DNA of 64,000 bases, from the IMG/VR virus record IMGVR_UViG_3300007754_000852; one strand, 5' to 3'. Position numbers and translations under genes: made by a program. Origin of the DNA: a virus (lineage: Duplodnaviria; Caudoviricetes). The notes under the pieces are model-generated. The model worked only from the letters and a program-made list of their open reading frames with translations. It ran no database searches and was not told where the DNA came from. Positions 1,227-64,000 of the stretch are shown in pieces. Every line of letters begins with the position of its first letter. Position 1 is the first letter of the stretch.

Positions 1227-1682
1227 CTACCGTGACTTATTTGTGCTATCTGAAAATGCTAGTGCCGCCCAGTTTCCAGCTGACTCACTAAACAGATCGA
1301 GGGGATCACTCTGTGCTGCAATCATCGAGGCCCTGTCGCTTGTCGGACCAGTTCTCGTTGACGATGCCTGCTCCTGGAGAGTTGTAAGAGCTGTATCTTT
1401 AAATATTGACGCCATGACAGGATCAGATGTCATCGCTGCTGCCGCTGATTCAGCAAGGACTGACTCATCCTGGCTGTCGTCTCTATTTTGACCCCACTCT
1501 ATTCTATCAAGTGACTGTGACCGACCTGACACCTTGGGCTCTTTTATCGTTGTCATCTGTGAACGATCTTCAACACGTGATGTCTGGATGATTGATGTCC
1601 CGCTAAGACCTTCTTGCAATATTTCAACAAGACATTCCTTGACGATTCCCTTTAAGTCACCCTTGCTTAATCTTTTACTCAT
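1227..1682 (-). CDS. Hypothetical protein, probably head/core-associated
   Basis: 151 aa, N-terminus LKGIVKECLVEILQEG, directly downstream of the protease gene. Confidence 0.7.
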   Translation of the reverse strand: MSKRLSKGDLKGIVKECLVEILQEGLSGTSIIQTSRVEDRSQMTTIKEPKVSGRSQSLDRIEWGQNRDDSQDESVLAESAAAAMTSDPVMASIFKDTALTTLQEQASSTRTGPTSDRASMIAAQSDPLDLFSESAGNWAALAFSDSTNKSR

Positions 1683-1687
1683 CTTTT

Positions 1688-3358
1688 CTACCAGGATAAA
1701 ATTTCATTAAAAATTCTATCAATCTTATCCGTCTTAGTAAAAATCCTATCTAGATCTTTTTGATCTATCTTTCTTGATTCACGAAGCATGAAAGCACCGG
1801 GCGTGCTTGGCTCAGATACCATATCAAAGCAGATTAATTGAAAATCTTCCTGGACGATCTGGCTATCTCCTTGCTGTCTTGTAGACCCTACACCTCTAGA
1901 TGAAATACCCAGAGTCACGCCAGATTCAACCAGGCTCTGTAAGATCTTTCCACTGGGTGTGTTAAGTAGCTCAATTGATCCAACAACGGCGTCACCTTCC
2001 ATCCTTGCCTCACGAATAATGTGAGATGCATTTTTTAACTCAACAACACTATGTTCTGGATGATCACAGTTACCTGTCCAAAATTGCTTGCCGTTTCTTC
2101 GTGCCATCCAGTTTCCATTAGGTGTTGTAACACAGTAAACATTGCTATCATGATCAACTTCATCAATTTTCATGAATCTTAGGTCTAGACCAATGTGCTT
2201 TGCATGATTTTCAGATATCAGCCACATTGGCTTTGAATTCTCAGCAAGAATCATCCTTCCAGGCTCAATCTCTCTATCTTTTTGTAAATATGATCTCGTG
2301 TTGCTTCCAACTCCAAGCTTCATAAATAACTCACTCACATCTTGAGCAAGCTCAGGAGATGTAGTGCAATACTCTCTAACAAGCCTTCCTCTAATTACTC
2401 TATTTCTTCCATCACCTATCAAAAGCCACGTCATCAATGTTTCAAGATGCTCTTTAGACCACTCTAGAATCTCATCCGGTATTCTCTTTTGTGAACTATG
2501 CCCTAGCTCATAAAGATAGCTGTGCAAGCCTTTATGAGAGCATGTAAAGTCAATTGTTTCACCGTCTGCTCTAGCACATTCTCTCCACTCTAGCGGCATA
2601 TCCCTAAGAAGATCACGAATCATCTTTACGTTCTCTGCCTTCTTTTGTGTTATCTGCACCTTATTAGAAGAAGAATAACCACTCTTTGTTCCAGCTGCAC
2701 AGCCTTCAGAAATGTATATTCCCATAAAGCCCGCCCAGACGTGAGGATCGACATTTAAGTCAGTTCCAGGTATGTTATATATCTCTGGAGTTTCTCCAAC
2801 CCATTCTGACCTGAAGCTTAAACCGCAGTGTGATAACCAGCTTGATTCCTCATTATACAGATCATAAACTGACTGTGCTGTCATATACGTCGGCTTATTG
2901 TTCCTGTCATATAACAGCACCTTGTGGTCAGGCGTTAACTTCATATCAAGAGATCTAGCATTGTAAAAATGAAGCATTTTTCCACTATAGTGCTTATTTG
3001 TAATGTGAAGTATCTCTTGTTCTTTTAGCTCATTTGTTTCTGTATTTAATGTAAATACTCTATCATCTGGTCTTAGGTCTTTGAAGTTTAACCAGCCTCT
3101 CTTTGTAAAAATTTGAGTCTCTTCATCGACGCACTCACCCAAGGCCCTATTTTCCTTAATAAATTTTTGATAATTAAGAATCTCTCTCTCAAGAATCGAT
3201 ATAGGATATATCCTTCCGTTTTGGTTTACCGTATTTGCACGTTGCAAAACGCCCTTTAAAACAACCTTTCCGCCATTTCTATCTCTTGACTCTTTAATTG
3301 TCTGTGCACTATACTGTAGCGGAGTCCACTCAGTAAGAAGCTGTAGCTTATTTTCCAT
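1688..3358 (-). CDS. gp21: Prohead core protease (T4 gp21-like) precursor containing one intein; mature protein 201 aa
   Basis: The spliced sequence carries the gp21 motifs GVLQRANTVNQNGRIYP, RALGE|CDHP (catalytic His), LGISSRGVGS (catalytic Ser) and DMVSEPSTPGA. Confidence 0.92.
   Translation of the reverse strand: MENKLQLLTEWTPLQYSAQTIKESRDRNGGKVVLKGVLQRANTVNQNGRIYPISILEREILNYQKFIKENRALGECVDEETQIFTKRGWLNFKDLRPDDRVFTLNTETNELKEQEILHITNKHYSGKMLHFYNARSLDMKLTPDHKVLLYDRNNKPTYMTAQSVYDLYNEESSWLSHCGLSFRSEWVGETPEIYNIPGTDLNVDPHVWAGFMGIYISEGCAAGTKSGYSSSNKVQITQKKAENVKMIRDLLRDMPLEWRECARADGETIDFTCSHKGLHSYLYELGHSSQKRIPDEILEWSKEHLETLMTWLLIGDGRNRVIRGRLVREYCTTSPELAQDVSELFMKLGVGSNTRSYLQKDREIEPGRMILAENSKPMWLISENHAKHIGLDLRFMKIDEVDHDSNVYCVTTPNGNWMARRNGKQFWTGNCDHPEHSVVELKNASHIIREARMEGDAVVGSIELLNTPSGKILQSLVESGVTLGISSRGVGSTRQQGDSQIVQEDFQLICFDMVSEPSTPGAFMLRESRKIDQKDLDRIFTKTDKIDRIFNEILSW
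2069..3133 (-). mobile_element. Intein (355 aa) with LAGLIDADG homing endonuclease in the prohead protease
   Basis: Starts CVDEETQIFTKRGW, block B LTPDHKV, LAGLIDADG-like motifs FMGIYISEG and LLIGDG, ends VYCVTTPNGNWMARRNGKQFWTGN, +1 residue is Cys. Confidence 0.93.
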
Positions 3359-4208
3359 TTAATTCCTCTACTATCTCATTCTTTAGCTGTGATATGACTA
3401 GGAATCTAGATATCACCTCATCAGAAACAGATTCTGTCTGTTCAGAACTAACCTTATCACTAACTGCATCGATCTTTTCAAGGATTGTATTATTATCTGT
3501 GCTACGCTTAAGCCTATCAAGCTCACTAATCGTGTTGCTTTTAATCTCTAATAGCGTCTCACTTATTGACATACCGTTCCACCCGCTCTCAGATGAAAAC
3601 ACATATGACCTAATCAATGTCTTCTGATCGTTACTTAAAGAGCCGCCGTATCTCTTGTTGAACTTTTCTGTCATCAGCTTAATAACTAGCTCATCCACAT
3701 CGTTATTAATATTTTCCTCAATTGACTTCTCGACCTTTTCTGACAACAGCCACTCAACAACCTTTGACTCAAATTGAACAACCTTTGACAGATCTGATCT
3801 ATCGCTTTTCCTCCACTCATTTAATAACGTCTGAATTGTGGCATACGTCGTATACTCTGGAATTCTCCTGTGATAGAAGCTCTTATCGTCTAACGTGTGA
3901 TTGATATCCCTTATGAGCATTGACTTCTCACGATCAAGACGCTTAGTGTTGCATCTTCTTGCAGCATACTTGGCCTCTGTTAGGATGCTTGCTGCAACAG
4001 GTGTGTCACTAACAGTCGTCTTTGCAAGCGCGTTAAACAGCCTGAATTCCTTATATAGCTCCGTTGACTTGTGGAACCTTCTCTCAATTATATCAAGGGC
4101 CGTCTTTGCCGCTGCCTTGTCGCCTCTGATCAGTGAGTCAGATATGTTTCTGAGAAGAAGCTCATATATTATTCCGATGTTTCTCTTCTTATTATGAGAT
4201 CTTGCCAT
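3348..4208 (-). CDS. Conserved hypothetical protein between portal and protease
   Basis: 286 aa, helical, AGGAGG RBS. The N-terminus HNKKRNIGIIYELLLR resembles a protein I recall next to portal genes in large environmental phages (unchecked). Confidence 0.7.
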   Translation of the reverse strand: MARSHNKKRNIGIIYELLLRNISDSLIRGDKAAAKTALDIIERRFHKSTELYKEFRLFNALAKTTVSDTPVAASILTEAKYAARRCNTKRLDREKSMLIRDINHTLDDKSFYHRRIPEYTTYATIQTLLNEWRKSDRSDLSKVVQFESKVVEWLLSEKVEKSIEENINNDVDELVIKLMTEKFNKRYGGSLSNDQKTLIRSYVFSSESGWNGMSISETLLEIKSNTISELDRLKRSTDNNTILEKIDAVSDKVSSEQTESVSDEVISRFLVISQLKNEIVEELNGK

Positions 4209-4215
4209 TTTGGAA

Positions 4216-7200
4216 TCAATCCTCCTCTGATGAATTATCGTTCTCAGAGATCACCCTTCTACGATTACTTATGGTGTTCCCAAGAGATTTTAATGACGAC
4301 CTTACGTCTGATGTCATTTTATTCTGCGTTTCTATCTTATCATCTATCATGTCCATAAACTCTGCATCATCCATCTCAGACAGGGTGGGAATTGAAACCC
4401 TCACAAGTCCTCTGAGGTCTGATCTGTCTTGATATCTCTTTTGTTTCATCCCAAATGGGTGTGTGATTGAGTCAGATGCGTTATTTCTGTCATGTGAAAC
4501 GATCCGAGAATGATCTGTGTCATTATTGTTTCTACCTCTTCTACGTTTTCTCTTCTCATCCTCAACTTCAGCCGGTGTCTTATCGTCGTCGTCATCATCG
4601 TCATCAACAACCTCAGAGAGCCTATCAACCGTTCCCTGTGCTGTTATCGGAGATGTCTCATCCCTAATTGATAGAGAGCCAAGATCAATCTCGTCGAACT
4701 CCCTGACTCCAGAAGATGTTAGAAGGTCAAGTCCAGAGCTATTTCTGTCATCTCCCGCAAGGGCTAGATCAGCTACGGCAGGCTCCTCATCTTCAGGCTC
4801 CTCAGATTCTGGACCCATTGCTAGCTCATCTGCTCCCTCTGGCTCATCACCAGGTAGGTGGACAGCCTCGACCTTGAGATCCATCAGCCTGTCACCGAAC
4901 CTTCCCTTGGAGATCTTATCTATCTCATCGTCTGTCATGTTAAAGATGTTTCTTCTTAACCACTCTCTGTCAACAAGCCCTTCTATTCCGGATGCTGACC
5001 CTGCGATCTCGAATCTTGACCTAAACAGCTCTAGCTTCTGCTGCTGTGCGATAGTGCTTGGGTTAGATAGCTGTAATGTGAAATCTAGAAGATCCTCACC
5101 CTCAAACCCATTGCAGAACAGGTGAATGATAGCTATCTTATTCATCTCTGCAATTATTGTTCTCTGGATTCTTGCAATGGTTCTTGAAAAACGTATGTCT
5201 TCTTGAGAGTTATGAACAAATATTTCTGCAGCGAGAGCAAAGTTATGATGTGTGTCAACAGTTATGTCATAAACCAACTCTGGCTCATCTAGCTTTACTA
5301 TCTCAATATTTGCAATCTTATGGTTGGAATTAATGTTATCTTCTAATAAATTGTCTTCACAATGTGTCATCGGGCTTTCACCAATACTTAAGTCCTCTGC
5401 ATTTGTGTATAGACCATCTTTCATTAAAAACGGGTGATTATCTGTGCATTCAACAATTTTGCCATTGTCGAGTGTAACTCTATAAAGCTCAGTGACCTCT
5501 TTTGTAGCCCACGCGTTTGTGATATTTCCGAATGTTGTTCTCTTATTATCATGATCATATGAATAAACTTTTAACTTTTTGCCATCATTAAATTCATTTA
5601 CAATATCCAGAATAGAAAGTTTTCTTCCGTCAACAAGGCATATTTCTGTATTTCCTCTCAGGCATAGTGTTGCCTTTGCACCCAGGCCTTCATCATAGCC
5701 TAGATATGCCTTAGGAATCTTTAACGCTGCAAATAGCTTCTTCTGGATGTATTCGACGTCCTCGATAGCTGTTGCATTTGCCCCGCCGGCAAGTGTATCG
5801 ATCTTGGTGCCTGACTCTCCGCCGCGAACGGGAAGATAATAATCCTCATCGACCGAATTCTTAATAAAAACCCCAGATTCTATTCTCTGATCATCAGAAA
5901 AGCATCTAGAATCGCCCGGAGTTGCAAAGTTATGGTAACCTTCAATTGTTACTGCACCTACATTCTCAGTATGATCTAGAACCTCTACACATACAACTTT
6001 ATGATTAGCATACGAAGCAGCTTGTTTCATCTCAGATCGTGTTTTTCCAGACATCCACGTCCAGTAACAATCTTGTGAGCAAAATGTTTTATAGCTCTTT
6101 ATATCTGTATCACAGCCCCGGCATGCAGAATTTGGCTTATTAAATTTTCCGCCAGATAGATAGGTTGTATCAAATGATTTACCAGTATACCCGTGCGACT
6201 GCAGTATTCTCATAAAATCATATCGACTTATTCCAAAATGCCTGATTATGTCATTTCTAGAAATGTTTATACTGTTACTAGCATATATTTCTATTTCTTT
6301 CCAAGGGGCACGTAATGAAGCATAATAATCTTTTACTTCTCTTAGATTCTTGAACCCATTTTTTCTAAGTTGCTGTATGAATTGACCTTTTGACAATTTA
6401 TCATTAAATCCATTTTCAAAATTTTCATTCAGAGACCTAAGATAAGAAGTAAAATTATTGTCATTATTTAACCAGGTTCTTACCTCATATTCTCTAGCAG
6501 ACGTTGTTAGTTCATTTAATGCTTGGATTACATGGTGAATTAATTCAGAATTTGTTTTAAGAGTTAGAGCATTTACTCTTTTTTCTCTTATTTCACTATT
6601 TTGCCACATCTTTGTATAAATTTCTGGATTTAGCTTTCCAGCTTCCCAAAGATTGATCATGTTTTTTCTAGATGCTTTTCTTCCAGCGGACGACTTGTTT
6701 CTCTCTACGCAGTAATCTCCGTGAATCTTGTGATGTTCTTTCCATGTGCATGGATGCAAGTTATTAGGAGAGTTATTTGTTTTATCGAAATCTACATGAT
6801 GAACAACTTTTCCTTTAATTGCTTCAAAACCAGATTCAGCTATTATATTTGCTCGATGTGTATAAACATAATTTTGTGAATATGGATCATAGATCATTTC
6901 ATATCCATCAATTACTCGCTTATCATCACCTTTCTTTGACCAGCGCTTGTATAGTGGCATCAATGCATCATTTTCGCTTAGATTCTGTGCTTCACAGTAT
7001 TCTCCATTACGAAGCATGAATTTATGATCAGGAGTTACATCAAGCCATTTATTGTTATCTAAATGAACCCTTACTAATTTTGCATTTTCTTTTGTTATCC
7101 CCGCCCACATTACGCGGCCAGGAGCTAATTTCTTTCCATCGCGATCAATAGAATATACCCATTGATCTTTTTGGCCGTTACTTCTTTCTTCAATTAGATC

Positions 7201-9180
7201 TCCAAGAGTAATGTTTCGTCCATCTTGCAGGAATAGAAGTGTGTTCAATGAGTTACAAAGCGGGTTGTAGCGCAAATCGACGCGCCCTGTGTCCTTGTCC
7301 ACAACAGACGCCTTCTTTAGTGTCGACTGCACCTGCTCCATGTATGTGGGAATATCCTCTGGTGGGACATTTCCAACATCAACGTAGAAGACTCTTCTCT
7401 CAGGAGACCTAACGATCCTGTACACGAGCATCGCATCCTCAACAAGAATTAGCTGTCTCCAGATCCTTCTTGCAGACTCTAAAACAGACGACCCGTAAGG
7501 AAGAAATGCATCATTTCCTAATAGTCTCATGTGTGAGACCTGCCAGTTCTCCAGCGCCTGGTTTCCCTGGGTTATCCACCTGAATCTGACAGCTAGTGGG
7601 TCATCAGGATCATATCCCTCCTCCCTCTCGACCTCATTCACAGGCATCGGATATGCGTTGATAACACCGTGCTCAGGTGACACGTCATTAAAGAGAAAGA
7701 AGTCACCGTACTTGACAAGGCTCCTAACCCATGACGTCATGTTAAACTCAACATTCAAAGTATCGTAGAACAGCTCATGTAGTAGCTTCTTAATCGTCTG
7801 GTTGTCTGAGTGGATGTGTAGAACGTTTCCATGTTCATCTGCAGCAATTGACTCCTCAGAGTAGATATCCAGAGCTGAACTCACCTCCGGTGTGTACTCC
7901 ATTTCGCTGTTTGAAACAAAACACATCTCCTTTTTTGTACTTGTGTCACAGACAGCAAAATTGTGTGTTTTTGTTACAGTTATGTCAAATACCGGCTCTA
8001 CTATGTGTGTATTAACTACATTTATGATCTTATGATTAACATACAATGATTCAAAATCATCAAATGACTTATATCCTTCCCATTTTAATCTATTTAAAAC
8101 TTTATACTTAGATTGGTTAAGCTTTTTAGACAAAACCGTCAGTGTATCACCAGAAACATATTCATCATAAATATTTTGAGCTGTAAAAGATCTATCTGCA
8201 TTTGCATTTTGTAACGCTTTTTGATCTTGCCTGCCTTTGTTTCCTGTACCGGGGGGGTTTGTTTTATTTCTAAGGATCGTTTCTGCAACATTTTTTCTAT
8301 AACCGTCAGTTAGCTTTCTTTTCGCAAGATTTTCTTTTTGATTTTTACGAAGATCTCCTTCAAGAGACCATCTTAGTGTCATATGGCTAGATTGCTTTTC
8401 TCTTTCTTTCGGATCTTCAAATCTTTTATTGTTGATTCTTGCATGCAATGCTAGGTGTTCCTTAGCATCCATTAGCTCAAGATTCTCTATTCTATTGTCT
8501 TCTTTTATAAAATTCTTATGATGAACATGTAATCCATCGGCCTTTTCTATTGAACGATTATTTGAATATTCTGCAACCAATACGTGCTCTGGCTTCCACC
8601 CCCTTGAAAAACCGTAAACCCAGCGATAATTTCCACCAGTTCTTTTAGAATCAAACTTCTTCCTGTAGAATGGCATAACAGCTGTATTGGGCTGGATCGC
8701 ATCTGTTCGACAATACTCACCATTACGAAGCATAATCGGATGATTTCCCGTACATCTAAGTGTAGTACCATTATCAAACGTTATTTCGTATATTTCATCT
8801 TCTACGGTTTGCCAGGCATTTTCTACAGGAGCTAATACAGTTGAATCTGTTTCTTTATCATATGAAAAGACACATACTGTTTCTCCATTTTCAAACTTAG
8901 ATACAATATCTCGAATAGAGATTACACCTTCTTCAGTATTTGTTGCTATTAAAGTATCACCAGTCAAACAAAAATCCGAATACCTCGCCATTCTATCATA
9001 CGTGCCATACGCAGACATTGCAGTGCTGTACACGTGACTCTGATTTCTTCGAAACATGTCAAATGCTGACGAGGTGCCGCTTCCGCTTTCAAAGTCCTTC
9101 ACCCTTCTCTTGATTACAGGGCCGCTTCTAAATAGAAGTGTTAGCCTTCTAAATAGACTCTGTGAATTTTTATCAGCCAT
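4216..9180 (-). CDS. gp20: Portal vertex protein (T4 gp20-like) precursor with three inteins; mature protein about 681 aa
   Basis: The exteins carry gp20 motifs EMEYTPEVSSALDIYSEE, LILVEDAMLVYRIVRSPERRVFYVDVGNVPP, EDYYLPVRGGESGTKIDTLAGG, EDVEYIQKKLFAALKIPKAYL and QEDIRFSRTIARIQ. Confidence 0.95.
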   Translation of the reverse strand: MADKNSQSLFRRLTLLFRSGPVIKRRVKDFESGSGTSSAFDMFRRNQSHVYSTAMSAYGTYDRMARYSDFCLTGDTLIATNTEEGVISIRDIVSKFENGETVCVFSYDKETDSTVLAPVENAWQTVEDEIYEITFDNGTTLRCTGNHPIMLRNGEYCRTDAIQPNTAVMPFYRKKFDSKRTGGNYRWVYGFSRGWKPEHVLVAEYSNNRSIEKADGLHVHHKNFIKEDNRIENLELMDAKEHLALHARINNKRFEDPKEREKQSSHMTLRWSLEGDLRKNQKENLAKRKLTDGYRKNVAETILRNKTNPPGTGNKGRQDQKALQNANADRSFTAQNIYDEYVSGDTLTVLSKKLNQSKYKVLNRLKWEGYKSFDDFESLYVNHKIINVVNTHIVEPVFDITVTKTHNFAVCDTSTKKEMCFVSNSEMEYTPEVSSALDIYSEESIAADEHGNVLHIHSDNQTIKKLLHELFYDTLNVEFNMTSWVRSLVKYGDFFLFNDVSPEHGVINAYPMPVNEVEREEGYDPDDPLAVRFRWITQGNQALENWQVSHMRLLGNDAFLPYGSSVLESARRIWRQLILVEDAMLVYRIVRSPERRVFYVDVGNVPPEDIPTYMEQVQSTLKKASVVDKDTGRVDLRYNPLCNSLNTLLFLQDGRNITLGDLIEERSNGQKDQWVYSIDRDGKKLAPGRVMWAGITKENAKLVRVHLDNNKWLDVTPDHKFMLRNGEYCEAQNLSENDALMPLYKRWSKKGDDKRVIDGYEMIYDPYSQNYVYTHRANIIAESGFEAIKGKVVHHVDFDKTNNSPNNLHPCTWKEHHKIHGDYCVERNKSSAGRKASRKNMINLWEAGKLNPEIYTKMWQNSEIREKRVNALTLKTNSELIHHVIQALNELTTSAREYEVRTWLNNDNNFTSYLRSLNENFENGFNDKLSKGQFIQQLRKNGFKNLREVKDYYASLRAPWKEIEIYASNSINISRNDIIRHFGISRYDFMRILQSHGYTGKSFDTTYLSGGKFNKPNSACRGCDTDIKSYKTFCSQDCYWTWMSGKTRSEMKQAASYANHKVVCVEVLDHTENVGAVTIEGYHNFATPGDSRCFSDDQRIESGVFIKNSVDEDYYLPVRGGESGTKIDTLAGGANATAIEDVEYIQKKLFAALKIPKAYLGYDEGLGAKATLCLRGNTEICLVDGRKLSILDIVNEFNDGKKLKVYSYDHDNKRTTFGNITNAWATKEVTELYRVTLDNGKIVECTDNHPFLMKDGLYTNAEDLSIGESPMTHCEDNLLEDNINSNHKIANIEIVKLDEPELVYDITVDTHHNFALAAEIFVHNSQEDIRFSRTIARIQRTIIAEMNKIAIIHLFCNGFEGEDLLDFTLQLSNPSTIAQQQKLELFRSRFEIAGSASGIEGLVDREWLRRNIFNMTDDEIDKISKGRFGDRLMDLKVEAVHLPGDEPEGADELAMGPESEEPEDEEPAVADLALAGDDRNSSGLDLLTSSGVREFDEIDLGSLSIRDETSPITAQGTVDRLSEVVDDDDDDDDKTPAEVEDEKRKRRRGRNNNDTDHSRIVSHDRNNASDSITHPFGMKQKRYQDRSDLRGLVRVSIPTLSEMDDAEFMDMIDDKIETQNKMTSDVRSSLKSLGNTISNRRRVISENDNSSEED
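5209..5664 (-). mobile_element. Portal intein 3, mini-intein (152 aa) with no endonuclease
   Basis: KATL|CLRGNT ... CTDNHPF ... VYDITVDTHHNFALAAEIFVHN|SQEDIRF. Confidence 0.93.
5857..7257 (-). mobile_element. Portal intein 2 (467 aa) with HNH endonuclease and a Cys4 zinc-finger-like motif
   Basis: YNPL|CNSLNT ... block B VTPDHKF, HNH motif VVHHVDFDKTNNSPNNL, CRGC..FCSQDC, ends VTIEGYHNFA...VFIKN|SVDEDY. Confidence 0.9.
7909..8970 (-). mobile_element. Portal intein 1 (354 aa) with HNH endonuclease
   Basis: YSDF|CLTGDT ... block B CTGNHPI, HNH motif HVHHKNFIKEDNRIENL, ends VFDITVTKTHNFAV...FVSN|SEMEY. Confidence 0.93.
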
Positions 9181-9194
9181 CTATGTCCCTCTCT

Positions 9195-10820
9195 CTACTT
9201 ATACACCCATTCCCACTCTGAGAGAATGTTTAGTTTCTTATTCCACTCACCTGACAGCTTGCTCTTTTTGAAGTCATCTGGCTGCACCTTTGGATCTCTT
9301 GTTGCAGAGCTATATGGCCTCCCTTCTGTGATCGCACCGGGCATGTCGTCGTATGTGTTTCTTGACACAGACATTGCCTTTAGCATTGCGCTGTTAAGAG
9401 ACGATGCTGTCTGACTGTACTCTGAAGATGCATCATATAGCCACATCGCGATGGCCATGCTCATAACTAGATCGTCATTGTACCCCTTCATCGCCTGTGC
9501 CTTTTGACCCTTCCACACGAACGTCTTTAGCTCGTCATAAAATCTCGTTGAGTAGATCTTTATCTGCTTATTCCTTATTACCTCTTCGAGTTTTGCAAGA
9601 ATTAGATTTCTACTCTTTCCTGAGGTTGTGAATCCTGCGATATCACTATCCTTGCTGGGCACATAGTCCCCGACATACACTGCCTTTCTTCTCTTGTGAT
9701 AAAGATTAGGATATTGCATTTCTTTTAGCTTTAAAACAGTTGCGTACCCATAGCTGTTATTTTCAGGGCATAGTAATGCCTTATTATATCTGTGGCCGAA
9801 CTCGTGTAAAAGCTCTGCAAACTTATCTGGGGGTATCTTTCCCTTATATTCTGCAACACACTCACCTTCTGTAACGTCTATCACGTGAAATGTCGAATAG
9901 TCTCTTGAGTCACCTCTTGAGACGTCTGCAGATATGACATACTGATGCTCTGATAGCGGATATCTCCATATCCACACATTCATATCATTGCCTGCCCTAT
10001 CTATGGGAGGCTTGCACTCTAATCTTATCCAGTCTATCTCACTGTCTGACAGGAATGTCTCACCCGATGATGCGAAGTCACAGAGATACTCCTGAGAGAT
10101 CTGTCTCTGCGATAGGTTTTTAGTTGTCTCATTAAACCACGTCTCATCTCTCTCTGGGTGGATGTTCCATGGAAGCTTTATCGACCTGAACTCGTTTAAT
10201 CCTGCCTCGGCATCAGTGTATAGCTTATAATACTGACCACCAACGCCATTGGGTGTTGATAGTATGATGACTCGACCACCTGTAGAGATCGTGGGATATA
10301 ATCCCATCCACAGCTCATCAAAATTTCTAACGAATGCTGCCTCGTCGATGATGAGAAGAGATAGCGCCTCAGATCGACCGGCATCGTCAGATGTCGGTAT
10401 CGCCTTGATCGATGATCCGTGACTAAACTCTATCAGCTGCTTATTGTTTGTGACGATCTCAGGTAAGACTAACCACTTAGGCAGACTTCTAATCATCGTC
10501 TTTACCTTGCTAATAAAATTTTGAGCAACTGATAATTTTGTTGCGATAATTAAAACATTCTTATCTTTCTGAAATAATGCCAGCCACACAGAGTAGGCTG
10601 CCACAAGAGTTGACATTCCTAGCTGTCTAGACTTAAGGATTATTGAAAATCTCTCATCAATAAATGTTTCAACACAGTCATCCTGAAACGGGTATGTGTC
10701 AAACTGTATTAGACCGCGAACAGGATGCTGTATTTTTAAATAGTTGTTAAAGAAGTATACAGGATCTTTACCAGACTTAACGATCTCCTTTATCTGATTT
10801 GTCTTGTTTATTTTTGTCAT
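9195..10820 (-). CDS. terL: Terminase large subunit (T4 gp17-like)
   Basis: KSRQLGMST P-loop region, Walker B LLIIDEAAF, coupling motif LSTPNG, RNase H-like nuclease SADVSRGDSRDYS and NDDLVMS. Confidence 0.95.
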   Translation of the reverse strand: MTKINKTNQIKEIVKSGKDPVYFFNNYLKIQHPVRGLIQFDTYPFQDDCVETFIDERFSIILKSRQLGMSTLVAAYSVWLALFQKDKNVLIIATKLSVAQNFISKVKTMIRSLPKWLVLPEIVTNNKQLIEFSHGSSIKAIPTSDDAGRSEALSLLIIDEAAFVRNFDELWMGLYPTISTGGRVIILSTPNGVGGQYYKLYTDAEAGLNEFRSIKLPWNIHPERDETWFNETTKNLSQRQISQEYLCDFASSGETFLSDSEIDWIRLECKPPIDRAGNDMNVWIWRYPLSEHQYVISADVSRGDSRDYSTFHVIDVTEGECVAEYKGKIPPDKFAELLHEFGHRYNKALLCPENNSYGYATVLKLKEMQYPNLYHKRRKAVYVGDYVPSKDSDIAGFTTSGKSRNLILAKLEEVIRNKQIKIYSTRFYDELKTFVWKGQKAQAMKGYNDDLVMSMAIAMWLYDASSEYSQTASSLNSAMLKAMSVSRNTYDDMPGAITEGRPYSSATRDPKVQPDDFKKSKLSGEWNKKLNILSEWEWVYK

Positions 10821-11209
10821 TATTCACAGAGAAACCTTGTTGACCTTCTGTAATAGGCGACCTTCCTTGGTGTGTAAGGAGATGTTGTAATCATCTCGAC
10901 ACTGTCATCTGTATCCAGCTCTTTTAGCTTAAGAGATCTACTTACATCATTTTTGAATTCTTTTTTAATATTTTTGATGTATTCCTTGATTAACTTAACA
11001 GATTCTTCCTCAAAAACCTTAACCTGATCTCTCAGATTTCTTTCAGATGCTAGATGAACAACTGTGGTATATTTTAGTGTTAGTACTTCTCCGGCGAGCG
11101 ACCCTTTAATTGACATGGTTGGAGACTTTACAGTTGAGCTCTTGCCAAATGTGTCGTTTAAAATTTGTCCAATACAATTAGTTTCTTCAAAGTTTAGCAT
11201 TATTATCAC
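10820..11209 (-). CDS. Hypothetical protein upstream of terL
   Basis: 129-aa ORF whose stop overlaps the terL start. Confidence 0.7.
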   Translation of the reverse strand: MIIMLNFEETNCIGQILNDTFGKSSTVKSPTMSIKGSLAGEVLTLKYTTVVHLASERNLRDQVKVFEEESVKLIKEYIKNIKKEFKNDVSRSLKLKELDTDDSVEMITTSPYTPRKVAYYRRSTRFLCE

Positions 11210-11231: not shown

Positions 11232-11486
11232 CTAGATTTGAAAACTAGGAGGAATTAGCTTTCTTTTTTTAATTTCCACATCTAGATCACGCTCTAACGG
11301 CCTCCAGCCTGCGATCCAGCGATCTCTATTTGGTTCGGCCCACTTGATAGCACAGTCTGAACAACATTTATATCTAGTGTAATAGACATCGTCATCAGAG
11401 TTATTCATCACAAATCTGCATACAGGACAGAATAAAGGGGTTATGTCTGACTCTCTTCCGTTAATGATGATAATTTCATCATTCAT
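11232..11486 (-). CDS. Small zinc-finger-like hypothetical protein (84 aa; start revised to MNDE)
   Basis: CPVC...CCSDC motif. The ATG at 11486 overlaps the SbcCD stop region. Confidence 0.65.
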   Translation of the reverse strand: MNDEIIIINGRESDITPLFCPVCRFVMNNSDDDVYYTRYKCCSDCAIKWAEPNRDRWIAGWRPLERDLDVEIKKRKLIPPSFQI

Positions 11487-14400
11487 GGAACACCATCGTA
11501 TCCTTTTCATTTTTCAGTATCTCAAGAGAGTTATCAACAGCATCTTTTATCGCATCAACGTGTGATATAACTATGATATTCTTGAACCACTTCTTAAGAG
11601 ACTCAAGTAATCTGCTACAGGCCTCAATGCTTGTCTCATCAAGCGCACCGAACCCCTCATCAATAATTAGCATATTTGTCTTTGGAAGAGAGCTAACGTT
11701 GATCAGTGCAACTCTCATTGCAAGTGATGCCATCATCTTTTCCATTCCAGATGCTAGCTCAATTATCCTCTTTGAGTCACCATAGTCAATAAAGATATCC
11801 ATTGCATTAGATGCAGGATCTGCAACTAACTCAACTGTAAAACCTGTAACACCCTGGAGTATCTTTAATATCTCATCATTTATTAGGGGAAGCTGGGACA
11901 TCATTATCTGGAGTGGGATTCCCTTTTTTGACATTGCCTGTATAAACATATCATACATCTTGAGATCCCTTCGTATCTTATTAAATTCACTCTTTTCGCT
12001 CTTTAGCCTCGTTATCTCAACGTTGGCACGGGCTATCTCATTAGAACACGACAGCCTTTTTTCATCTAGGCGCTCTATCTCATCCCTTAGTGATGAAATG
12101 TTGCTTTTAAGTTTGATGCACTCTGATGATGACTCTTCGTCAACTACCCTTATAAGCATGTCATCTAAGATTTTTAAATTTTCATCAACGATCCTTTCTG
12201 AATTTGATATCTTAGATTGCAACTCGCCCCTTTCAACTTCAAAGCTCGAAATTTTTCGAAGAATCTCGGCCTCCTTTTCAGAAATCTTATCAAACTTTTT
12301 AATCTTATCTTCTACGTTCTCTAGCTTTATTTTTTCAAATGCTTTTGTTGCCTTGGTTAAATTTTTAGACATACTAGAGACAGCAAGCTTTTGTGACTCA
12401 ATGCTCTTTTTATCCTTGTGAGAGTCTTTAATGAACTTACATGATGAAAACTCATCACCACACGGAACATCTAGTAGCTTTTTAACAGATCGTTTCTGAC
12501 GACTGAGTATGTTTTTTTGAACCTCGCACTCGTGCTCAAGTGAGAGCAAAGATTTTTCAAGAGACGTCTGTGATGCCAAACTCTCTCTAAGCTTCTTGAT
12601 CGGAAAGTCATTCTTTACACACTTAATTCTTAGCATTCTTTCATTTTCTTTCTTTAGATTGTCACTTAAGACTCTTAGGTCTCTTTCATAACACTCTAGC
12701 TCATCTTTATTTTTGTTAACCTTCTCCCTGTGGTCTTTGACGTCAGACGGTGTAACAATATCAATTCCGCCTGTTGTTGCTAGCTCAATGCTTAGCCTCT
12801 CAAGGATTTCTCTTTTTGTCTTTATCGTACTCTCAGTATTCACAAGACTTTCTTTATTTTTTTCAATGATTGATGTTTGATCATCAATTAACGAGTCCCA
12901 GTCCTCATGTTTCATCAGTCTGGCTTTTGATCGTGTATCAGATGAGTCATTTTTTGCAAAATCATGAAGCTTATCAAATATGTCTAGATCAAGAAAGTTT
13001 GTCAATATCATTTTTCTTGCAGTTGCCTTTTCTCTAATGAACGTATTCATCTGTCCCTGTGACGCAAGAGATGTCATTAAGAAATCTTCTGATGTTCCTA
13101 TCATATTTCTAACAATCTTTTCAGTGTTTCTTCGTTGCTCACCTGATAGGTCTGATACTATGTCGCCCGCGTCATCAATCTCATATAGGTAGAGGCTCGT
13201 TGTTGCATATGTGTCATTTTTTTTTGTTGTATTTTTGACAGTCTTTCTCTTTATTCTAAACTTTTTTCCATTCATGCTAAATTCAATTGTTGAGCTACAA
13301 CTATTCTTTCTATTATTGATTACATGAATGTTTTTTATCGGACCTCTGTCTGTAGTGTTAAATAAACCATACATCAATGATCCAATTATCGATGACTTTC
13401 CTTTTGTATTTTTTCCAAAGATTCCAGTTATTCCAGGAAGATTATCAAAATTTACCATATTTCCAGAACCGTATGCAAACGTATTATTAAACTTAAAATT
13501 ATTAATTTGCCACCTTACGTTTCTTAGCCTCTCATCCTCTAACACTATTTGAGATAGATATTTGTCAATTAGATTATCAAATTTATCAAATGTTCCTTTT
13601 CTATGGCTAATGTTATCATAATATTCTCTAATCAGCCTTTTTTGAGCTTTTGCATCTCTTAAATTATCACCACTTACACTTTTTTTATTGTTAATTTCTG
13701 ATGAATTAAATGTTGTTTCAGACTTAAACACGACCTCAGATGCAGACTTAAACGTTAACAGCTCATTTTGAACCTGTCTTGATGTTGCCTGTGTCATACT
13801 TTGGTCAGATCGTATCCTGAACCTGGAACCGTTTGGATACTTTGCAGATTCTATTAATGTCTTTTTAACGCTTCCCTTCCAGTCAATCGTTATAAATGGC
13901 TTACTGTGTGGTATCTCATGAAAAGAAACATCGAAGTCATCCTTTCCCCTGATATCCCAAAATAAAAACCCCTTGCCGACCGACTCACCGTAATTTTGCT
14001 GAATTTGTGACCCGCAATAGGCTATCTTTTTATCATCAGTTAAGAATTGAACATAGTGAATGTCAGCTAAAAGAGCATAGTCATAATCATCAAAAAAGTT
14101 TGCTGTTATCTCACCTTCAAGCTCCCAATTTGAATCAGTCTTAGAACCCTGAACACATCCGTGAAATAGTGCTATATTTACATCATCGTCAGTCGGTTTG
14201 ACATCTTTCCAGCCTGGCTCATCAAAGCATGAAAATACGTTCCAGCTAAATCCAGGATGATCTACTATGGGATATGTTCCTGAATCCTTATAAAGATATA
14301 TGTTTGGATCATTTAATGCTGACAGTATCGGTGATATCGCATCCTGTCTAGACTTATTCAAAAGAAGGCCGTCATGATTTCCAAGAATCACATGGACAGG

Positions 14401-14616
14401 TGCGATCGACGACAGCTCCCTAAACCACCAACAGATGTTGTCTATCAGCTCTGGAGATATCCCTTGCGTCTTTGAATGAACAATATCACCGCCGACGTAG
14501 ATGACATCTGGATTTAATTCTGTAGCAATCTTAAAAAAGGCTGCAAATGACTCTCGATACTCGTCGTGGCGTGAAAGTCCACGCCAGTGAATATCTCCTA
14601 AATGTATGACTTTCAT
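11479..14616 (-). CDS. sbcDC: Fused SbcD (Mre11/gp47-like nuclease) and SbcC (Rad50/gp46-like ATPase)
   Basis: Metallophosphoesterase motifs GDIH, GGDIVH, GNHD and FHG at the N-terminus. Then Walker A GKNTKGKSS, Q-loop SQGQ, coiled coil, signature LASGMEK, Walker B IIDEGFGALD and H-loop ISH. Confidence 0.92.
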   Translation of the reverse strand: MKVIHLGDIHWRGLSRHDEYRESFAAFFKIATELNPDVIYVGGDIVHSKTQGISPELIDNICWWFRELSSIAPVHVILGNHDGLLLNKSRQDAISPILSALNDPNIYLYKDSGTYPIVDHPGFSWNVFSCFDEPGWKDVKPTDDDVNIALFHGCVQGSKTDSNWELEGEITANFFDDYDYALLADIHYVQFLTDDKKIAYCGSQIQQNYGESVGKGFLFWDIRGKDDFDVSFHEIPHSKPFITIDWKGSVKKTLIESAKYPNGSRFRIRSDQSMTQATSRQVQNELLTFKSASEVVFKSETTFNSSEINNKKSVSGDNLRDAKAQKRLIREYYDNISHRKGTFDKFDNLIDKYLSQIVLEDERLRNVRWQINNFKFNNTFAYGSGNMVNFDNLPGITGIFGKNTKGKSSIIGSLMYGLFNTTDRGPIKNIHVINNRKNSCSSTIEFSMNGKKFRIKRKTVKNTTKKNDTYATTSLYLYEIDDAGDIVSDLSGEQRRNTEKIVRNMIGTSEDFLMTSLASQGQMNTFIREKATARKMILTNFLDLDIFDKLHDFAKNDSSDTRSKARLMKHEDWDSLIDDQTSIIEKNKESLVNTESTIKTKREILERLSIELATTGGIDIVTPSDVKDHREKVNKNKDELECYERDLRVLSDNLKKENERMLRIKCVKNDFPIKKLRESLASQTSLEKSLLSLEHECEVQKNILSRQKRSVKKLLDVPCGDEFSSCKFIKDSHKDKKSIESQKLAVSSMSKNLTKATKAFEKIKLENVEDKIKKFDKISEKEAEILRKISSFEVERGELQSKISNSERIVDENLKILDDMLIRVVDEESSSECIKLKSNISSLRDEIERLDEKRLSCSNEIARANVEITRLKSEKSEFNKIRRDLKMYDMFIQAMSKKGIPLQIMMSQLPLINDEILKILQGVTGFTVELVADPASNAMDIFIDYGDSKRIIELASGMEKMMASLAMRVALINVSSLPKTNMLIIDEGFGALDETSIEACSRLLESLKKWFKNIIVISHVDAIKDAVDNSLEILKNEKDTMVFHE

Positions 14617-61697: not shown

Positions 61698-64000
<2,303 letters not shown>

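Follow-up and report, generated by a model that had tools for sequence, protein, structure and literature searches.

The portal gene of what appears to be an uncultured marine T4-like phage, an assignment consistent with the relatives found, is interrupted by three inteins, and very probably it was invaded by three independent, site-specific homing inteins that persist as selfish passengers. The gene lies in the 64,000-nucleotide stretch analyzed here (IMG/VR record IMGVR_UViG_3300007754_000852; Caudoviricetes), below called the window. It is read from the minus strand, a point left unstated in the original prediction, which had been made from the letters alone; read on the plus strand, 4216-9180 is full of stops. 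A Pfam scan of the whole precursor finds Portal_T4 (7.3e-64), Intein_splicing in three stretches (1.4e-45), and HNH_3; this match and the head-module context place the host protein among the T4 gp20-type portals (PF07230), in agreement with the first identification of a portal with three inteins. Inteins account for 973 of the 1654 amino acids (aa), or 58.8%, in pieces of 354, 467, and 152 aa, exactly as first counted and now borne out by motif positions; the predicted spliced portal would have 681 aa and a mass of 77 kDa. The open reading frame (ORF) is laid out as follows:

4216..9180, minus strand: portal precursor ORF, 1654 aa (~189 kDa), stop codon 4216-4218; gp20-type portal plus three inteins
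8971..9180, minus strand: N-extein, aa 1-70, ending ...RYSDF
7909..8970, minus strand: intein 1, aa 71-424, 354 aa; Cys1, TGNH, VSN, +1 Ser; GC 34.4%
8452..8586, minus strand: HNH_3 domain of intein 1, precursor aa 199-243; HVHH...N...N...EH motif
7258..7908, minus strand: extein 2, aa 425-641 (SEMEY...RYNPL); core of the Portal_T4 match
5857..7257, minus strand: intein 2, aa 642-1108, 467 aa; Cys1, TPDH, IKN, +1 Ser; GC 34.6%
6730..6864, minus strand: HNH_3 domain of intein 2, precursor aa 773-817; VVHH...NN...N...EHH motif
5665..5856, minus strand: extein 3, aa 1109-1172 (SVDEDYYLPVRGG...GAKATL); in T4 gp20 terms, the clip domain, the channel loop, and the larger part of the tunnel loop
5209..5664, minus strand: intein 3, aa 1173-1324, a 152-aa mini-intein; Cys1, TDNH, VYDITV..HNF, canonical VHN, +1 Ser; GC 34.4%
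4219..5208, minus strand: C-extein, aa 1325-1654 (SQEDIRF...); wing and crown helices and a long acidic low-complexity tail

How well are the boundaries defined? With a slash marking each splice junction, they read YSDF/C...VSN/SEMEY, YNPL/C...IKN/SVDEDY, and KATL/C...VHN/SQEDIRF, matching the insertion points first proposed, each with Ser at +1. An IMG/VR scan with extein 2 returned 80 loci that are 76-97% identical in this segment. Stop-to-stop frames through the match measure 639-724 aa in all 68 complete relatives, excepting L006, the nearest one, which carries different inteins in its portal (P0009; see below); among the remaining relatives that cover the sites, aligned to the predicted spliced protein, 78/78, 78/78, and 77/77 are free of insertions at sites 1, 2, and 3, respectively. 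Their commonest uninterrupted sequences, RYSDF/SEMEY (66/78), RYNPL/SVDED (62/78), and AKATL/SQEDI (59/77), are letter for letter the junctions predicted for the spliced window protein, an agreement far beyond chance. The exteins are also collinear with the uninterrupted portals of Microcystis phage Mel-JY01 and Flavobacterium phage immuto (P0002, P0003), so that alignment to intein-free homologs upholds the proposed sites; the loss of collinearity that would have refuted the original prediction is not seen. These two phages are the nearest cultured relatives, at only 38-47% protein identity, and a megablast search of 50,697 phage records with the portal gene gave no match.

Each insert, taken alone, matches Intein_splicing (PF14890; cut-off 35.8 bits): intein 1 at 53.2 bits (3.9e-14), intein 2 at 54.1 bits (2e-14), and intein 3 at 59.7 bits (3.7e-16). 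HNH_3 (PF13392; cut-off 24.8 bits) is found in intein 1 (34.1 bits, 2.1e-08) and intein 2 (24.9 bits, 1.5e-05), and the HNH motif residues are invariant in an alignment (A3); neither a Pfam scan nor alignment to the P0009 intein revealed an HNH endonuclease domain in intein 3. The splicing blocks are:

Intein 1: block A CLTGDTLIA, block B TGNH, block F FDITVTKTHNF, block G CFVSN
Intein 2: block A CNSLNTLLFLQDG, block B TPDH, block F GAVTIEGYHNF, block G VFIKN
Intein 3: block A CLRGNTEICLVDG, block B TDNH, block F YDITVDTHHNF, block G IFVHN

All three inteins thus keep the class-1 nucleophiles, Cys1, the terminal Asn, and Ser+1, as well as the TxxH of block B; of the three, only intein 3 has the penultimate His (VHN); intein 1 ends in SN and intein 2 in KN. 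Beyond its splicing domain, intein 2 contains the HNH endonuclease, a helical region, and a Cys-rich stretch. It is the least canonical of the three, and its AlphaFold2 (AF2) model has a predicted local distance difference test score (pLDDT) of 91-97 over residues 1-100 and 83-96 over residues 420-467; Foldseek aligns this model to solved inteins at probability 1.00 (e.g., NpuDnaE, TM 0.61, rmsd 1.9 A), and its splicing domain is thus modeled confidently as a HINT fold. Among the sequence matches in the PDB are the inteins of NrdJ-1 and DnaE. At the site of intein 3, P0009 has a 383-aa HNH intein, to which intein 3 aligns only at the two ends, residues 1-101 (81% identity) and 336-383 (77%); intein 3 is therefore a mini-intein derived from this HNH intein by deletion of the endonuclease region (~234 aa). 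GC content is 34.5% in intein DNA vs. 46.1% in extein DNA, and 20 of the 21 precursor cysteines sit in the inteins.

Which parts of the portal are interrupted? A profile built from intein-free relatives aligns to T4 gp20 (PDB 3JA7, 6UZC) with an E-value of 1e-34. In gp20, the clip domain spans residues 279-358, the channel loop 350-359, and the tunnel loop, which protrudes into the 28-A channel, 374-398 (PMC4493910). Site 1 falls at about Y79/R80, in a part of the alignment that is below threshold and therefore approximate. Site 2 corresponds to M328/S329, which belongs to the clip domain and precedes R338 of the inner clip loop by nine residues; Ser329 of T4 gp20 itself occupies the +1 position. 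Site 3 corresponds to I396/T397, at the C-terminal end of the tunnel loop and just before helix alpha-8. By this alignment, the clip site lies close to the entrance of the DNA channel, whose lining includes the tunnel loop. An AF2 model of an intein-free relative (P0128, whose numbering equals that of the window exteins in the conserved core; core pLDDT ~70-90, with a mean of only 61.7 because the tail is disordered) puts site 1 (extein residue 70) inside helix 60-73, site 2 (residue 287) in a loop ahead of strand 293-297, and site 3 (residue 351) where the long helix 350-383 begins, following a loop modeled with low confidence (341-347). The tail, the last ~230 residues of the portal (window 4219-4900, minus strand), is predicted to be disordered in this model; it is acidic and of low complexity, with a run of eight Asp followed by KRKRRRGR, and much less conserved than the core (omega 0.118 vs. 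0.024).

These positions bear on when splicing takes place. If the portal is a 12-mer like T4 gp20 (PMC4493910), each ring would require 36 splicing events, as the original arithmetic had it. Twelve subunits would hardly leave room for inserts of 54 kDa at site 2 and 17 kDa at site 3, and splicing therefore most likely precedes ring assembly or at least goes on alongside it.

The distribution of the inteins is sporadic. Among the nearest 80 IMG/VR relatives, portal inteins occur in a single one, L006 (3184-10140), whose 2319-aa portal P0009 has exteins 95% identical to those of the window and four inteins, at extein residues 70, 86, 287, and 351; site 86 is empty in the window. The P0009 inteins at sites 70 and 287 are unrelated to their counterparts in the window (32% identity): the former ends in Gln (ARQ/S), and the latter looks class-3-like, with Pro as its first residue and Cys at position 4 of block F. 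Intein 1 is 80% identical to the site-70 intein of another portal, P0069, and the exteins of these two proteins are 70% identical; the histories of intein and extein disagree. In a tree of 153 splicing domains, the inteins group by insertion site, with 11 label changes (minimum 8; mean of shuffled labels 75.7), and the nearest neighbor of each window intein is an intein at the same site in another phage. The three inteins are mutually paralogous (31-36% identity; E 1e-19 and 3e-19); recent duplication of a single intein into three sites of the gene was considered and rejected, because each is more similar to the inteins that occupy its site in other phages than to its two paralogs. Clustering by site and the discordance between intein and extein argue for homing and for cleavage of intein-less alleles. 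The pattern is what textbooks describe for homing inteins, which invade, see their endonuclease decay, and are themselves lost in a recurring cycle; it is that of selfish elements and not of a retained regulator.

In the intein-free relatives (L004-L083), the +1 residue is not always Ser: it is Gln in 12/78 at site 1 and Ala in 9/77 at site 3. With Gln or Ala at +1, an inserted intein could not splice; these alleles may resist invasion, as has been reported for haloarchaeal MCM (PMC10643990).

The original prediction offered two readings of the triple insertion, an intein hotspot and a checkpoint on head assembly; the first receives strong support from the family at large. In a collection of 5.8 billion proteins, extein 2 matches (E <= 1e-10) 819 long clusters, of 909-2895 aa, and PF14890 is annotated in 118 of the 120 best of these; at least 7999 shorter clusters also match, so that in the collection, too, the inteins are distributed sporadically. 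A sample of 254 portals, made up of these 120 and the new proteins among the 150 best 50%-identity representatives, is biased to long proteins and shows what exists, not how frequent it is; within it, 378 inteins with canonical boundaries could be mapped. Eighteen sites are seen at least twice (extein residues 64, 67, 70, 75, 80, 86, 90, 134, 210, 223, 237, 287, 314, 345, 346, 348, 349, and 351), with clusters at residues 64-90 and 345-351; those not occupied in the window include residue 223 in the stem helix, 314 in the channel loop, and 345-349 in the tunnel loop. One intein is present in 146 portals, two in 45, three in 36, four in seven, and six in one (P0322, 2818 aa). Mini-inteins make up 17% of the 378, and inteins that start with Pro (Pro-1) recur at sites 134, 287, and 314. 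The combination 70+287+351 is unique to the window within the sample, and triple-intein portals as such are not rare in this sampled marine family. A more distant gp20-type portal of a huge phage (L001, 2713-6873; LR756508, a 484-kb uncultured phage; 1386 aa) also has three inteins, at LPYGK/C, WKQL/C, and ELEGK/C, approximately sites 210, 223, and 348.

The claim that portals are an uncommon intein host therefore needs softening: portal inteins have been published for mycobacteriophages (PMC5050341) and actinobacteriophages (10.1101/2025.01.02.630785), and they are common in this family. Searches of the available literature found nothing specific on inteins in marine or T4-like portals and no description of the density of sites in this family. 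Homing inteins and portal inteins are known kinds of element, and this single gene is an ordinary, if heavily loaded, case of intein parasitism; the interest lies mostly in the density of sites across the family. The gp20-type portal of very abundant uncultured marine T4-like phages is here documented among the most densely intein-invaded proteins, with full-length, mini, Pro-1, and Gln-terminal inteins side by side. The family thus lends itself to the study, in natural phage populations, of how inteins home, switch sites, and decay; it also supplies many natural inteins that are orthogonal to one another, and it is a warning for gene callers and for marker-gene surveys that rely on the length or sequence of the portal (g20).

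The following course of events is proposed. The gene would be translated as a 189-kDa precursor, from which each intein would excise by the class-1 pathway: an N-S acyl shift at Cys1, transesterification to the +1 Ser, and cyclization of the terminal Asn. The four exteins would be joined into a 681-aa, 77-kDa portal able to form the dodecamer. The HNH endonucleases of inteins 1 and 2 presumably cut intein-less portal alleles of related phages in mixed infections, and the cut alleles would be repaired by copying the intein in. Intein 3 would have lost its endonuclease and persist solely as a splicing-competent mini-intein. The inteins seem to have settled in conserved segments where the +1 Ser was already in place, and two of these segments belong to parts of the portal that line the DNA channel; at such conserved sites, precise deletion would be the only tolerated route of intein loss. 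The sequences themselves show the insertions and their boundaries, the intein and HNH domains, the sporadic distribution, the lineages tied to particular sites, and purifying selection on the splicing domain of intein 3; splicing itself, endonuclease activity, and homing are inferred, with indirect support for splicing from that selection, from the open frames, and from the presence of the allele in a replicating population.

Some observations weigh against this reading: (i) in block G, inteins 1 (VSN) and 2 (IKN) have no penultimate His, and the position of block F that is usually Asp or Cys is Ala in intein 2, which makes the splicing efficiency of both uncertain; (ii) the endonucleases of inteins 1 and 2 appear intact, as judged only by their motifs; (iii) the intein 3 splicing domain differs from its L006 counterpart with pN 0.107 and pS 0.698 (omega ~0.06, compared with 0.024 for the exteins), values that are rough since dS between the window and L006 is near saturation, although their direction points clearly to purifying selection on this domain; and (iv) prevalence is drawn from clustered databases, in which the number of short clusters is a lower bound and clustering at 50% identity inflates the intein-bearing share.

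Could the inteins, instead of being passengers, be used by the phage? In the checkpoint reading, conditional splicing (in response to redox, temperature, metal, or DNA) would gate portal maturation and head initiation, with a second step gated by a further intein in the neighboring prohead protease gene:

1688..3358, minus strand: prohead protease, gp21-like, Peptidase_S77, 556 aa; two genes downstream of the portal
2069..3133, minus strand: protease intein, aa 76-430, 355 aa, LAGLIDADG type; RALGE/C...WTGN/CDHP, Cys at +1

Four inteins thus lie within 7.5 kb of the head module, the fourth just ahead of the CDHP motif of the protease. Any intein in an essential protein ties its function to splicing, and two of the portal sites fall, by the alignment to T4 gp20, in regions critical for function, namely the clip domain and tunnel loop (PMC4493910). 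The concentration of precursor cysteines in the inteins also counts for this reading, and conditional splicing is documented elsewhere, having been measured for the DnaB inteins of Mycobacterium smegmatis (PMC6195587, PMC7360933), the model case for this idea and likewise an essential protein with more than one intein. A beneficial regulatory intein, however, should be retained across its lineage, and these are not conserved: the three sites are empty in every other IMG/VR relative (77-78 portals), and the closest one has different inteins at two of them. The protease intein is not coupled to them either: 58/59 relatives have its site uninterrupted, L065 carries the same intein and has none in its portal, and L006, with four portal inteins, lacks it. 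Two of the three portal inteins keep homing endonucleases, a mark of mobile and not of domesticated elements, and the third is a decayed mini form; no sensor feature was identified, and, unlike in M. smegmatis DnaB, nothing here indicates conditional behavior. Conditional gating of portal maturation is therefore unlikely, and the second reading of the original prediction finds no support. Similarly doubtful is its joint version, in which all four head-module inteins act as one gate that delays prohead initiation and maturation until redox, metal, or temperature conditions are right, or, more modestly, in which the HNH inteins serve to exclude the portal alleles of co-infecting relatives.

Alternatively, the inserts may be dead, the gene being a pseudogene, the inserts being retained as extra domains, or the inteins performing cleavage only. 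The SN and KN endings of inteins 1 and 2 and the missing block F Asp of intein 2 would fit such a fate. Several active inteins, however, lack the penultimate His, and both endings recur elsewhere: the P0069 intein also has SN, and the 32 site-287 inteins of the first sample, which sit in otherwise intact portals, end in KN more often than in anything else, suggesting that these endings are lineage traits shared with other intact portals. The 2919 nt of GC-poor intein DNA are open and in frame throughout, the catalytic residues are all in place, and intein 3, the sole intein with a codon comparison, is under purifying selection. A search with the intein hidden Markov model (HMM) and the ORF list showed no second portal ORF in the 64-kb window, and the 54-kDa and 17-kDa inserts at sites 2 and 3, twelve times over, would be hard to accommodate if they stayed in place. 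Loss of splicing is thus very improbable.

That the window, a metagenomic assembly, joins a portal gene to an unrelated intein-bearing sequence can be put aside as exceedingly improbable, given three precise in-frame junctions, an identical protein independently on record (P0008), hundreds of related intein-bearing portals, and the occurrence of the stretch in two marine metagenome studies (word depths ~16x and ~5x), in the second of which (run X5) separate contigs bridge 5/6 intein/extein junctions with zero differences, 8970/8971 being the junction not among the bridging pieces listed, which excludes an assembly artifact at the bridged positions. Presence in the runs of two studies also means that the intein-bearing allele belongs to a replicating phage population. 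An Rfam scan of 1500-11000 at gathering thresholds matched no family, introns included; there is thus no sign of a group I or II intron.

How does this portal compare with known intein hosts? In cluster C1 mycobacteriophages, six portal inteins are on record (Kelley et al., 2016; PMC5050341), and actinobacteriophage portal inteins form five polyphyletic groups in a 2025 survey (10.1101/2025.01.02.630785). There, as here, a phage portal is interrupted, the distribution is sporadic, and several independent lineages are involved; those papers place their portals in InterPro IPR009279 and deal with phages of actinobacteria, whereas the window encodes a T4 gp20-type portal (PF07230) of a marine uncultured T4-like phage, with HNH endonucleases. 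Several inteins per portal gene are not mentioned in the passages cited here. Genes with multiple inteins are described as rare, the classic case being the four in the ribonucleotide reductase (RNR) of Trichodesmium erythraeum (Liu et al., 2003, as cited in PMC2874743). This citation describes a similar situation, several inteins in one essential gene of a marine organism, but the Trichodesmium host protein is an enzyme of nucleotide metabolism, while here it is a structural protein of the virion, from a family with up to six inteins per gene. A parallel in site architecture is the haloarchaeal MCM helicase, which has four neighboring intein sites and in which some alleles lack the splicing nucleophile (PMC10643990): in both cases, many closely spaced sites in a conserved gene each have a site-specific intein lineage, but MCM has four sites and the portal family 18 recurrent ones, and the hosts here are phages. 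T4 gp20 itself has no intein; it shares with the window homologous exteins and a gene position next to the terminase large subunit (TerL) and near the prohead protease, and differs in that the window exteins are only distantly similar to it outside the stem-clip-tunnel core and end in the long acidic tail.

The portal is flanked upstream by TerL and downstream by a gene for a 286-aa protein of no known family:

9195..10820, minus strand: TerL, 541 aa, directly upstream of the portal; phrog_2, 5.7e-52

TerL carries no intein and has no match to the intein HMM. A custom HMM built from the splicing domains of portal inteins found no more inteins of this kind in the window ORFs; it missed the LAGLIDADG intein of the protease and is thus not a general detector. 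PHROGs and Pfam scans of ten other large window ORFs revealed no more inteins. Farther into the window, on the minus strand, a 1045-aa ORF (11479-14616) combines a Metallophos (Mre11/SbcD-like) N-terminus with an SbcC/Rad50-like ATPase (phrog_77, 2.3e-51), parts that are separate genes in T4. Very large ORFs of 948, 664, 1492, 856, 1107, 1208, and 511 aa follow at 16248-40917 (minus strand); none has a PHROGs match, and the sole Pfam match is Laminin_G_3 in the 1208-aa protein. These presumably encode tail, baseplate, or fiber proteins of an uncharacterized kind. The far end of the window (61698-63323, minus strand) carries an auxiliary metabolic gene, a Nol-like carbamoyltransferase (phrog_1601, 1e-108).

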